Shown here one piece after another: positions 22,612 to 60,048 of a DNA stretch of 64,000 nt (its first letter is position 1; each line of letters opens with the position of its first letter). A model generated the notes under the pieces. The model was not told where the DNA came from. It searched no databases and saw only the letters and a list, made by a program, of their open reading frames with translations. A program made the position numbers and the translations under genes. Source of the DNA: Eledone cirrhosa (lineage: Eukaryota); NCBI GenBank assembly GCA_964016885.1, contig OZ024760.1, positions 22,258,001 through 22,322,000 on the forward strand. Reading direction: 5' to 3'.

Positions 22612-22791
22612 ATAGGAACAAGTAAGAACCCGACGGCTGAGCTCAAGACATTTCGACGGCTAATTCTCCGTCGAAATGTCTTGAGCTCAGCCGTCGGGGT
22701 CTTACTTGTTCCTATTACCCACTCTACTACCCTAAGTATTGAGTACTTTGGTGCGTTATGGTCCACCTGGTTCCTTACCACATTTCCTTCG

Positions 22792-22793
<2 letters not shown>
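22612..22793 (+). mobile_element. GC-rich hairpin cassette family, copy 1 (palindrome 22612-22714) in (TA)n
   Basis: Same family at 32956, 40220 and 59855; each arm carries the 3' half of a hammerhead. Confidence 0.85.
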
Positions 22794-22837
<44 letters not shown>

Positions 22838-23120
22838 GATATTAATAAATGGAAACTATATTTATAAAACCATATTTATTTCATTATACATATTTCAATA
22901 TACATACTTTCATTATACATACTTTATATCAGTTATAAAAATAATTGCTTGTTGCATCCCAACAATTTAAATAGAACTTTTGCATATATATATATATATA
23001 TGTATAAATATATATATATATATATATTAATATATATATATATATTTATATATATATTAATATATATATATATATTTATATATATATTAATATATATATA
23101 TATATTTATATATATATTAA

Positions 23121-23153
<33 letters not shown>

Positions 23154-23248
23154 ATATATATATATATTTATATTATAAATATATATCTTATTGTTCCACT
23201 ATATATATATATATTATTGTTCCACAATGCTTCAAGCAAACTTCAATA

Positions 23249-23294
<46 letters not shown>

Positions 23295-23864
23295 GAGGTT
23301 ATATTTAATTTGTTGGGACTCAACAAGCTTAACATTTTTTATAACTGATATAAAGCACTCAACATTTTAGTGGAGTAAATACACAATATATTAGTAAATG
23401 GAAACTATATTTATAAAAACATATTTATTTTATTATATATATTTCAAGTTAATCTTATATTATATTCTTCCACGTTAATCTTATTTCTTCTTTCACTTCT
23501 TCTTTCACTTAGAAATATTTACGCTCTATATTCTTCCATTAATATTATTTCTTCGTTTCTTTTTTCTTCGTTCATTCTTGACTATCTTCACTATCACTAT
23601 GTATAATCGTTCTTTCTTTCCTCTTCTCTCTTTCTCCTTCCTTTTCTTTTTCTTTTCTCTCTCCCTTACATATCCTCTTCTTCCAACAGTTTTATTTAAA
23701 TAAACTGTTATCTTTTCAACTTTTCGGACACTCATTTGCATACTCACTCATAACTTTGTATTACCATCAATAAAATATTATCTCCGCTATCCAGGAAGCT
23801 CCAACCGTTAAGGTTGTTTTTTTTCCGGGTATGTCAATATTTATTTATTTATAAAACAAATCTG

Positions 23865-23921
23865 TATTTTATCTGATGAAAGCGCACCATAATTTGCTCT
23901 TGAAATATATATAATAAAATA
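23865..23921 (+). ncRNA. Type I hammerhead ribozyme (13948 family, shortened stem II)
   Basis: tattttat-CTGATGA(23873)-aagcgca-ccataatt-tgctctt-GAAA(23902)-t-atat-a-TA^-ataaaata. Confidence 0.75.
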
Positions 23922-24049
23922 AATATGGTTTTATAAATATAGTTTCCATTTATTAATATATATAAGTATTGGTGGTCTGAACTAGCAATGTATATATCAA
24001 TGTATGTACAGTATATACTGTATGTTTAATATACTGTATGTTTAATATA

Positions 24050-24330
24050 CTGTATGTTTAATTAAAACATTTAGAAGACCATTCTCTATGAGTTTTAAAG
24101 TAGTGACTATGTCACTTACTTAATCTCGACAAAAGAGTGGTCGACAGAGTCTGTTTCCCGTATGTTAGCAGCGGAGTGTGTGGTCTTGATAAGCGCTAAC
24201 AAGCGAGAAACAGACTGTCTGTCGACCACTCTCTGTTACTTTTGCCGAAATTAAGTAAGTGACATAGTCACTACTTTAAAACTCAGAGACAATGGTCTTC
24301 TAAATGTTTTTAATAAAACATACAGTACAT
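24050..24330. mobile_element. Imperfect inverted-repeat cassette centred on a hammerhead
   Basis: Arms include gagttttaaagtagtgactatgtcacttacttaat / attaagtaagtgacatagtcactactttaaaactc. Confidence 0.8.
24180..24229 (+). ncRNA. Hammerhead ribozyme with U3-A8 variant core and GUC site
   Basis: gtggtc-TTGATAA(24186)-g-cgct-aaca-agcg-a-GAAA(24207)-caga-ctg-tctg-TC^-gaccac. Confidence 0.65.
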
Positions 24331-24546
24331 TGACGAATATTCTATACATACGTTAAGGGTGAAAGCAACGATTCTTTGCTTAAACTTTAATCTGTTATTT
24401 TAATAAATATATATATATATATATATATATATGCAAAAGTTCTATTTAAAATAATATAAACATTTCACTATCCAGACAGCTTCCAAAAATAATGGTTGCA
24501 TTTAATAGGGTACGTCAAAATTATTTATAAAACTGTTTATATATTG

Positions 24547-24611
24547 TATTTTGTCTGATGAAGGCATACCATATTTTAATTTGGTATCCCTGAAATATGT
24601 ATAATGAAATA
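24547..24611 (+). ncRNA. Type I hammerhead ribozyme (13948 family)
   Basis: tattttgt-CTGATGA(24555)-aggcatacca..tggtatccct-GAAA(24592)-tatgta-TA^-atgaaata. Confidence 0.8.
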
Positions 24612-24650
24612 AATATGGTTTTATAAATATAGTTTCCATTTATTAATATC

Positions 24651-24692
<42 letters not shown>

Positions 24693-24724
24693 TGTATGTA
24701 TATATAAATATATATCTAGTCTAA

Positions 24725-24975
24725 AGTCTGTGTTAAGCCATTTTTCCGGTTTCATAGCATGAAGCGACTGAGAGTACAAGACTTCCTCCAGAACAGGACG
24801 CCAGTCCATCGCAGGGTTAAACTCTCAGCTATTGCAGGTAGTCATTTTCAGTGAGTATAGTGGAGCAACGTGAAATGAAGTGTTTTGCTTAAGAACACAA
24901 CACGCAAACCAGGAATCGAACCCACGACGTTATGATCATAAGTCCAACACCATAGCCACTAGGCCAATTGCCTAC
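24725..24975 (-). mobile_element. tRNA-derived SINE family B (CORE/V-domain-like)
   Basis: The minus strand has a tRNA-like head with B-box GGTTCGATTCC, then gtgttcttaagcaaaacacttcatttcacgttgctcc and gcgatggactggcgtcctg. Confidence 0.8.
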
Positions 24976-25493
24976 ACACACACACATATATATATATATT
25001 ATATATATATATTATATATATATATATATACACACACACATATGTGTGTATATATGCATATGTGTGTATATATACAGATACACACACACACACATTATAC
25101 ATACATATATTTATGTATATATGTATTTCAAGATCTCTCTCGTGAAGAATTTGGCTGTGTTCATCCTTAGATAGGAATTGATTTCCGTAGGTTTAAATGC
25201 CCTATACAGGCCAAATATCTCTATAGCGGCCCTAAGATTCCTTATGGAAGTAAAGGCCCAAATTCCTGGGACAGAACTACTTATATTTAAAGGAATTTTC
25301 GTCCCTGAGCAGTCGTTCCTATTGCCAACCTCACCGACGTTTATACGGCAGGAAAACCAACCAAGAGAACTGTTTACACTTAGAGAAGAATGGAGACCCA
25401 ATAGTGTGCATATAGTATGTTTACAACCAAGTACTTGAAATTGTTATGTTCGTCAACCATCAGGCATGTAAAACCGCAGCGACATGGATAGGT

Positions 25494-25535
25494 TTAGGGT
25501 TAGGGTTAGGGTTAGGGTTAGGGTTAGGGTTAGGG
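25494..25535 (+). repeat. Interstitial telomeric repeat (TTAGGG)7
   Basis: Seven perfect TTAGGG units. Confidence 0.95.
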
Positions 25536-25589
25536 TTTCATTCTCTATGATATGACCTGGCTAATCTTTTATTATTTTCATCAATCTCG

Positions 25590-57948: not shown

Positions 57949-58247
57949 CAATATATAAGCAAATAACGAAACGAAATTAAATTTCGTTTCGTTTGTAACT
58001 CACTTTTGTATGACTGACACTTAAACAATTAAGTTAAAAATGTACATCCACATATGTATACTGAAATACTAGTATGCATATGAATACACACACGTGTACA
58101 TATGTAGATGTACCGAGTTTTTCACTGGACACTTTACTGTGAGTGTCCAGCTATTCTGTATGTAAACACACAGACAAACCGGTTTTTAGAGTCATACTGG
58201 TTTTCGAGGAAACACCTTTCCTCTATTCTCCAGAAAGCCAGACAAGG

Positions 58248-58292
58248 AATATTGGACTAGTTTCGATGTTGTTACATCTCATCAGCAATATT
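58248..58292 (-). ncRNA. Type I hammerhead ribozyme (mirror of 58461)
   Basis: tcatcag at 58279-58285; exact reverse complement of 58461-58505. Confidence 0.9.
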
Positions 58293-58460
58293 TACCTATC
58301 TTCCGGCCTTTCTAGAGAATCGTAAAAGCACATATCGTTATATGCTTTTTCTATGAAAATTAGTAGTGGGCAGACTAATCTGCCCACTACTAATTTTCAT
58401 AGAAAAAGCATATAACGATATGTGCTTTTACGATTCTCTAGAAAGGCCGGAAGATAGGTA

Positions 58461-58505
58461 AATATTGCTGATGAGATGTAACAACATCGAAACTAGTCCA
58501 ATATT
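58461..58505 (+). ncRNA. Canonical type I hammerhead ribozyme, GUC cleavage after 58498
   Basis: aatattg-CTGATGA(58468)-gatgt-aaca-acatc-GAAA(58489)-ctag-TC^-caatatt, with distal stem I agaaaggccgga/tctggctttct. Confidence 0.92.
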
Positions 58506-58785
58506 CCTTGTCTGGCTTTCTGGAGAATAGAGGAAAGGTGTTTCCTCGAAAACCAGTATGACTCAAAAAACCGGTTTGTCTGTGTGTTTACATACAGAAT
58601 AGCTGGACACTCACAGTAAAGTGTCCAGTGAAAAACTCGGTACATCTACATATGTACACGTGTGTGTATTCATATGCATACTACTATTTCAGTATACATA
58701 TGTGGATGTACATTTTTATAAATAAATTTGACGTACCATAAATATTGATCAACTTTTATGTAAGAAGTTGGTTTGGTAGTGAGAT

Positions 58786-58852
<67 letters not shown>

Positions 58853-58940
58853 CGTATTTATGCAACTTTGTTTACTTATATGTACCTATAATTGCTTGCA
58901 TCTATGTATGTTTATATATATATATGTAAGATATGTGTGC

Positions 58941-58985
<45 letters not shown>

Positions 58986-59026
58986 CATATATAAGATATG
59001 TGTGCGTATATATACACACACACACA

Positions 59027-59094
<68 letters not shown>

Positions 59095-59241
59095 TATACA
59101 TTTAAATATTTCTATATACATTCAAAAGAAACTTCATTTTTCTTCATACATATATATATATATGATTGTTCTATATAATATATATATATACAAACACTGA
59201 CACACACATACATATACATACGTGTATATACGTGTATATGC

Positions 59242-59293
<52 letters not shown>

Positions 59294-59376
59294 TTATTTA
59301 TATTTCAAGGAAACGACAAAACTGAGATACAAAAGGTCTTATTAGTTTCATGCTTTATATGGAAAAGAGGAAGAAT

Positions 59377-59412
59377 GTTCGACGTTTCAATCTATAGTCC
59401 TTCTTCAGAAGT
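59377..59412 (-). ncRNA. Degenerate minimal hammerhead
   Basis: Minus strand: CTGAAGA-aggactatagatt-GAAA-cg-TC^-gaac; the stems are weak. Confidence 0.45.
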
Positions 59413-59477
59413 ACAAAAAAGAGAGCCAGGATCACAAAGGATATATCTATATATATATATATTTATTGTATAGAAGG

Positions 59478-59528
59478 AGCTTCTACGGGACTAGAACTGT
59501 TTCATTCAGATGAAATCTTCAGGAAGCT
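59478..59528 (-). ncRNA. Type I hammerhead ribozyme (39114 family)
   Basis: Minus strand: agcttc-CTGAAGA-t-ttc-atct-gaa-t-GAAA-cagttctagtcccg-TA^-gaagct. Confidence 0.75.
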
Positions 59529-59643
59529 GGGTGTCATATTAAGTTCTGGTATTTATACATTTAGGTAGTGGTAAGGGAGGTGGCTGGGGGGGGGGGGGGT
59601 TTCTTACTTACTGTGGTTATCCCCGACTCAACCCGGCACCTAC

Positions 59644-59687
<44 letters not shown>

Positions 59688-59854
59688 GTTTATCCCGTCG
59701 TTAATCGGGGCTAGCCACAGTAAGTAACGCACTCAATACATAGCAGAAAATAAATATTTAATATAGATATGGTTTCTACGGGACTAGATGATTTCTCCCT
59801 AATGAAACAGTTCTAGTCCTCTAAAAGCCACACCTATATATTATATATATATAT

Positions 59855-60048
59855 ATAGGAACGAGTAGGACCCCGACGGCTGAGCTCAAGCCGTTTCGAC
59901 GGCTAATTCTGGACAGAATTAGCCGTCGAAACGGCTAGAGCTCAGCCGTTGGGGTCCTACTCGTTCCTATTACCCACTCTACTACCCTAAGTATTGAGTA
60001 CTTTGGTGCGTTATGGTCCACCTGGTTCCTTACCACATTTCCTCCGTT
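59855..60048 (+). mobile_element. GC-rich hairpin cassette family, copy 4 (palindrome 59855-59970)
   Basis: Same family as 22612 and 40220; (TA)n flanks. Confidence 0.9.

Follow-up and report, generated by a model that had tools for sequence, protein, structure and literature searches.

What process sets the 3' half of a hammerhead ribozyme opposite its own reverse complement, where the 5' half of the ribozyme should stand? The question is raised by a 64,000-nucleotide (nt) stretch of the Eledone cirrhosa genome (assembly GCA_964016885.1, contig OZ024760.1, positions 22,258,001 to 22,322,000; hereafter the window), in which an earlier note had described four hairpin cassettes at window positions 22612, 32956, 40220 and 59855. 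Our analysis shows that these hairpins are paired short copies of a Penelope retroelement, quite probably made when both nicked strands of the target primed on the same RNA and synthesis ran off at a predicted capped 5' end.

The cassettes are present at those positions, and the landmarks that had been given for the third (GAAA at 40367, GTC at 40387) are right. Each arm is a hammerhead 3' half with the axis of symmetry inside loop II, as had been described, and the loops do differ, the four copies having different centres. Every copy is embedded in (TA)n: between two stretches of that repeat lie an arm of ~55 nt, then the junction, the mirror-image arm and a 78-nt tail. The tail, and here the earlier description needs correcting, belongs to a single arm, which in copies 1 and 4 is on the + strand and in copies 2 and 3 on the - strand. 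From copy 1 to copy 4 the two arms agree at 47/48, 43/49, 55/55 and 55/57 positions, and all four copies lack the hammerhead 5' core and the 5' strand of stem I. In the following list, parent positions are counted from the A of the hexamer TYAGTY (+1).

22615..22667, - strand: copy 1, tail-less arm, parent ~+4 to +58; outer end in (TA)n; subfamily CTTACTTG, bearing the GAAATGTC double change
22668..22792, + strand: copy 1, tailed arm; hammerhead 3' half with GAAA at 22673 and GTC at 22693; outer-end site 1 at TTCCTA 22709, then the 78-nt tail to site 2 in (TA)n
32958..33093, - strand: copy 2, tailed arm; older subfamily, 82% identity to an intact unit
33097..33143, + strand: copy 2, tail-less arm; GAAA 33101, GTC 33121, TTCCTA 33139; end in (TA)n
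40222..40353, - strand: copy 3, tailed arm; subfamily CCTACTCG
40355..40407, + strand: copy 3, tail-less arm; GAAA 40367, GTC 40387, TTCCTA 40403; end in (TA)n
59858..59913, - strand: copy 4, tail-less arm; extends to parent ~+2, adjoining the putative transcription start
59914..60047, + strand: copy 4, tailed arm; GAAA 59928, TTCCTA 59964, tail to 60047; end in (TA)n

The family is far more frequent than chance would allow: a 23-nt word from the arm has 18,307 exact matches in the 3.0-Gb genome and a 25-nt word from the tail has 44,145, while the reversed control of each has none. In 864 kb of unselected DNA (seven blocks) we found 59 family clusters with 55 tails, 29 of them exact. Scaling these up gives ~84,000 tails genome-wide, a rough figure because the sampled blocks are denser than the genome mean.

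Two unselected copies with arms that run on upstream led to the parent element. Such long copies are variably truncated at the 5' end and lead into a frame for reverse transcriptase (RT) and a GIY-YIG endonuclease on the arm's own strand, and the arm proves to be the pseudo-long-terminal-repeat (pseudo-LTR) or 5'-untranslated segment of a 3,531-bp element in which that frame is intact. Dozens of parent copies have open frames of ~784 codons, the protein from the first Met is 717 amino acids long, and the motifs FDIESYY, YRDDG and VIYQ...YIGLT place RT before a C-terminal GIY-YIG. At one locus, four 3,531-bp units stand in tandem; one end of the array bears an inverted tailed arm, and the other lies tail-less in (TA)n. 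The motifs RWR, DKT and CNCPDRSIC (CxCx5C) fit the Hydra clade and agree by eye with the published Hydra alignment; CCHH is absent by eye, and the parent inserts into (TA)n, as the Hydra clade does. Two usual Hydra traits are missing, however: the hammerhead core is YTGANAA rather than CUGANGA, and the unit is 3,531 bp long rather than <3 kb. A Pfam scan returned no family for any of three fragments of the parent, and a homologue search with its protein gave 1,649 matches, almost all unnamed, of which the best are ~40-44% identical. Since the canonical core and the length below 3 kb are lacking and no Pfam family was assigned, we file the parent, an intact Penelope retroelement, as Hydra-like. 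Among its copies, L393 (3726-3965) has an upstream ATG at +104, in the tail, with a short frame, the main ATG lying at +232 and the main frame being open for 67 codons upstream of it, and L395 (2610-9901) holds two full-length open reading frame (ORF) copies, 99.9% identical, head-to-head in one insertion.

The outer ends of the arms fall at two invariant places, +59 and +139. Both sites read TAT, which can pair with the ...ATA-3' primer of a nicked (TA)n target, and both match the two tail-bounding start sites seen in vitro, where, in the available part of PMC11167929, a Penelope-like enzyme cleaves both strands and extends them from two internal sites that bound the tail. We propose the following route, each step of which is conditional. 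Transcription would start at the A of TYAGTY within hammerhead loop II, and the element's enzyme would nick both target strands in (TA)n. Reverse transcription would be primed at both internal sites (+59 and +139) of one RNA and, on the 5' copy of the segment, the two complementary DNAs (cDNAs) would run off after ~58 and ~138 nt and be united by end-joining with trimming and insertions. Priming on a downstream copy of the segment would give the rarer long arms with a whole hammerhead and ORF, and a small class of insertions would derive from RNA cut by a U3-A8 hammerhead.

The RNA could also come from elsewhere. An account that is compatible with most of this route, and differs in the source of the RNA, holds that the short hairpins arise by two-ended priming mostly on RNA of other short hairpins, forming a self-sustaining family with an internal promoter, akin to a short interspersed element transcribed by RNA polymerase II. 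Every tailed arm retains the TYAGTY start and both priming sites, long arms make up only 4/86 of those in the unselected DNA, and a double change in copy 1 (discussed below) is absent from the long copies of its subfamily; an internal promoter has also been described in Drosophila virilis Penelope (PMC2377424, in the part available). However, the main subfamilies of the short hairpins also occur as long, hammerhead-bearing arms, and dozens of intact ORF copies are available as sources. We regard this source as possible, if rather unlikely.

The inner ends of the arms stop sharply. Among the first 71 listed of the 18,307 arms, 50 stop 0-6 nt upstream of +1. Within these 71, a group of 47 comprises 37 that stop 0-6 nt upstream of the first base of AGTCC, one that stops at 11, one at 38 and eight that run at least 45 nt, and the remaining 24 comprise 13 that stop and 11 that are long; just two of the 21 non-stopping arms end within the next ~39 nt. 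The unselected DNA gave the same picture, with no arm ending 7-56 nt upstream. The site of the stop reads TYAGTY across subfamilies and is initiator-like; we take it to resemble the arthropod-type initiator consensus. Furthermore, in 381 arms a G or C separates AGTCC from an A/T context, and among the first 100 listed the base was G in 64; where the extra base lies directly on the TA repeat, a hand count of the same 100 gave 37 G versus 10 C. In full-length L1 insertions an extra G is a copied cap (PMC11702581, in the part available), an account that does not appear in the available part of PMC7353768. Because the stop is sharp, TYAGTY is conserved and the extra base is most often G, we infer a capped transcription start at the A of TYAGTY, in loop II.

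Alternatively, the enzyme may stall on a longer RNA, at a U-rich stretch or at the structure of loop II. Young subfamilies do have a U-rich stretch just upstream, and 928 arms have six or more T before AGTCC, producing An/Tn centres that likely reflect slippage or untemplated addition. Yet in an older subfamily that lacks a U tract there, most arms stop at the same place (by eye), and the excess of G and the conserved TYAGTY fit a capped start, so that we consider a stall improbable. Two further readings of this junction were dropped. The An/Tn centre is not the poly(A) of an opposite-strand RNA: the parent contains no run of this kind, and its ORF is encoded on the same strand as the arm. Nor is TTTAG a splice acceptor, as the AG is still present in the arms before they stop.

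How the two arms relate to each other separates priming at two ends from copying of one arm by the other. We compared 145 distinct short pairs, drawn from loci both selected and unselected: 133 join a tailed to a tail-less arm, two are tail/tail, two TA/TA and eight unclear, and long insertions show the same tailed/tail-less asymmetry in both polarities. With 19 ambiguous cases removed from the 133, both arms belong to one subfamily in 110 of 114 pairs, compared with a shuffled mean of 26. Minority alleles are common to both arms in 18 instances (3.9 when permuted) and unshared in 246, and therefore the shared alleles go back to the birth of the copy rather than to steady homogenisation, which the earlier note had offered as one option and of which we saw no sign. 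Its other option, that the inverted arm is templated anew for each copy, holds in that junction centres are all different in 30/30 unselected copies (recurring centres span subfamilies) and in the subfamily agreement just given. The mode that it proposed, fold-back priming at stem II, is contradicted by the lengths of the arms: in 33 pairs, whose ends were estimated, with a slight overestimate, by comparison with 69 references, the tail-less arm is the longer in 18, the tailed arm in 12 and neither in three.

Fold-back or self-priming, in which a single cDNA turns back on itself, at stem II or at its 3' end, and is copied to give the second arm, would account for the subfamily and the rare alleles that the arms share, and the An/Tn centres and short templated insertions at centres resemble snap-back synthesis. 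It would also suit copy 1, whose double change gacatttc/gaaatgtc is mirrored in both arms at that locus and at no other of 21 loci. This change, which had been reported as private to copy 1, is nearly so (22 arms genome-wide); the second mirrored substitution reported there, acaagtaag/cttacttgt, is a subfamily type found at other loci. However, a copy of the tailed cDNA cannot exceed the tailed arm without later deletion, and besides the 18 pairs above, locus L273 has a tail-less arm of ~2.6 kb and a tailed arm of 313 bp, a difference of ~2.3 kb. Solo arms, both tailed and tail-less, also occur, and the axis varies in position rather than being fixed at stem II. We thus judge fold-back slightly less probable still than a stall. 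At one locus, L088 (9782-9998), the arms look like different subfamilies, CCTACTCG and CTTACTTG, and this insertion may possibly have been made from two RNAs.

An ordinary MITE (miniature inverted-repeat transposable element) or foldback DNA transposon, moving as a whole palindrome with ancestral inverted repeats, is scarcely credible: the copies are short, palindromic and very abundant, and 30 loci chosen for likeness to copy 4 mostly have its centre, but the ends are asymmetric, the centres of the 30 unselected copies all differ, the arms run into a retroelement ORF with variable 5' truncation, and the family does not combine terminal inverted repeats at both ends with a fixed interior and movement as a unit. 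A parvovirus or HUH hairpin was dropped once the Penelope parent had been found. Non-LTR retrozymes are, in the available part of 10.64898/2026.07.22.740005, non-coding tandem monomers that each contain a whole hammerhead; this candidate too was rejected, since the short hairpins lack the hammerhead 5' half and the tandem units seen are coding.

The intact parent with a hammerhead 5' half that had been predicted does exist, carried by 3,334 arms, but its core is YUGANAA and not CUGANGA. In the parent, the arm is preceded on its upstream side by the 5' strand of stem I, then YTGANAA, a G, the 5' strand of stem II and a loop of ~33 nt. A genome search for the form originally predicted, CTGANGA-GACGGCTAA, gave 11 matches, all unrelated, and canonical CTGANGA is carried by 7 arms only. 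CTGANGA within 30 nt of an arm gave 42 matches, and the 30 that we read proved to be either noise at junctions or fusions to other elements. At L094, L095, L101, L113, L118 and L121, near position 1500, family arms run straight into ends of other elements that carry CTGANGA; these are possibly cDNA joins from two different Penelope-like families. In 100 long arms collected with the motif pattern (up to 3 mismatches), the 3-8 pair is U-A in 67, C-A in 22, C-G in 7 (selected), U-G in 3 and A-A in 1. U4, G5, A6, A9 and G10.1 are each present in 97-99 of these pattern-collected arms, all four bases occur at position 7, where a type I hammerhead allows any, and the G10.1-C11.1 pair, GAAA and UH of the type I core are present in the parent motif. 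In 24 hand-picked sequences, 90% of the cells are paired and, in stem II, three pairs show changes in both partners; no compensatory change was seen in stems I or III of these sequences.

Insertion ends offer a second view of this motif. Tailed arms begin at +42, the first base after GUC, in 42 cases versus 3 at +37, although the control pattern for +37 is longer and richer in CpG. By hand tally of the first 100 rows listed, 25 of 52 distinct loci end at +42, with 1-7 at each of seven neighbouring positions. Ends at +42 fit reverse transcription of the 3' cleavage product of the predicted hammerhead.

Several observations weigh against priming at both ends of a capped, ribozyme-bearing RNA. 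The start site and the cleavage are both read from DNA, and pausing of the enzyme beside stem III could account for part of the peak at +42. The hammerhead is the minimum-energy fold in 1/24 of the hand-picked sequences, with a gap of up to 22.3 kcal/mol; RNAalifold recovers stems II and III and shifts stem I, burying G5 and C17; and Rfam reported no hammerhead in the best 150 of 831 window matches, nor in three loci with the whole motif. The mismatched C3-A8 core stands in 22/100 long arms. As to the arms, deletion at palindrome centres after insertion could blur which arm was longer at the outset. Within one young subfamily, the nearest relative of a long arm is its own partner in 4/24 cases, on a tree that is uninformative below subfamily level and from a set that included some false pairs. 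Origin from the same RNA molecule is accordingly supported only at the level of subfamily and through a handful of rare alleles. For the double change in copy 1 we found no source copy, including among the long copies of its subfamily; either a rare source RNA or a single local conversion would suffice to explain it. In L254 (1566-1700) and the 21 other long arms of the C3-A8 variant, the change strengthens the shifted stem I that would bury the catalytic core, and these arms are possibly a subfamily in which cleavage has been lost.

Penelope insertions that are inverted and tailed have been described before, as have targeting of (TA)n, cores of the U3-A8 type and the use of two start sites. 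In the literature searched, with most subscription papers outside reach, neither run-off palindromes, nor a hammerhead divided by a start site, nor insertion ends at a ribozyme cut were described. Taken together, our data permit a broader reading that we offer tentatively, as somewhat short of an even chance: the hairpins would be an integrated strong-stop product, the promoter would lie in loop II, ~50,000-100,000 divergent-promoter palindromes could be transcribed and copied again, and the ends at the cut site would record U3-A8 cleavage in vivo. If so, the mRNA would begin with half a ribozyme and two priming sites, and it is this leader that both nicked strands would copy. Minus-strand strong-stop DNA of LTR retroelements is a short cDNA that begins near the 5' end of the RNA and runs off the cap. 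The likeness is one of working only: here the product would be target-primed on both strands and integrated, and unlike LTR strong-stop DNA it would involve no tRNA primer or strand transfer.

The origin of Penelope inverted repeats and tails and the action of hammerheads in vivo are open questions in the field (PMC8557442 and PMC11167929, in the parts available). This family offers tens of thousands of near-minimal products with ends that mark the priming sites, the likely RNA start and the predicted ribozyme cut, and its intact enzyme copies make the two-primer model testable. Such hairpins are also liable to be misannotated as MITEs or microRNA precursors. Elsewhere in the window, 45183-45331 is a perfect hairpin of another repeat, to which a microRNA model gives 86 bits, below its gathering score of 150; this score likely reflects the palindrome only. 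An old, degenerate fragment of the hairpin family lies at 55405-55463, its upstream TTTAGTCA motif fused to part of the tail, and 28164-30876 is ~2.7 kb of nearly pure TA-rich microsatellite. The window further holds nine CTGANGA...GAAA hammerhead-like motifs of other families, two sets of which are divergent mirror pairs:

13778(-)/13956(+), 20595, 23873, 24555, 31204(-), 57940(-) and 58285(-)/58468(+)

Comparison with known systems, in each case with the available part of the source, places the family near several of them. Like the Hydra clade, including Hydra-1_Obim (PMC8557442), the parent has a C-terminal GIY-YIG and the RWx, DKT and CxCx5C motifs, targets (TA)n and leaves an inverted 5'-truncated copy with a tail at one end. 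It differs from that clade in its 3.5-kb unit (versus <3 kb), in its mostly U3-A8 core with a long loop II (versus a canonical hammerhead) and in that most copies are palindromes of ~190 bp; its tail, at 78 nt, compares with 30-40 bp in other Penelope-like elements. Hydra-1_Obim itself is a separate family, its protein and hammerhead differing by eye. PAc Poseidon in vitro (PMC11167929) likewise nicks and extends both strands at an AT-rich target, while run-off at the RNA 5' end and miniature palindromes are not described in the part of that paper available; that study found no RNA-seq reads with ends at the ribozyme cut, while in the present family some insertions do end at the predicted one. 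The minimal hammerheads of Schistosoma Penelope-like elements (PMC4209133) also have U3-A8 for C3-G8 and lie in the pseudo-LTR, but the motif in E. cirrhosa has a stem III of 5-6 pairs and a loop II of ~33 nt, and the predicted transcription start would divide it in two. Finally, Adineta vaga Penelope (PMC3846280) shares head-to-head inverted pseudo-LTRs, an optional tail and an initiator-like pseudo-LTR sequence; its inverted junctions have been read as self-priming, whereas the arm lengths here favour two primers.

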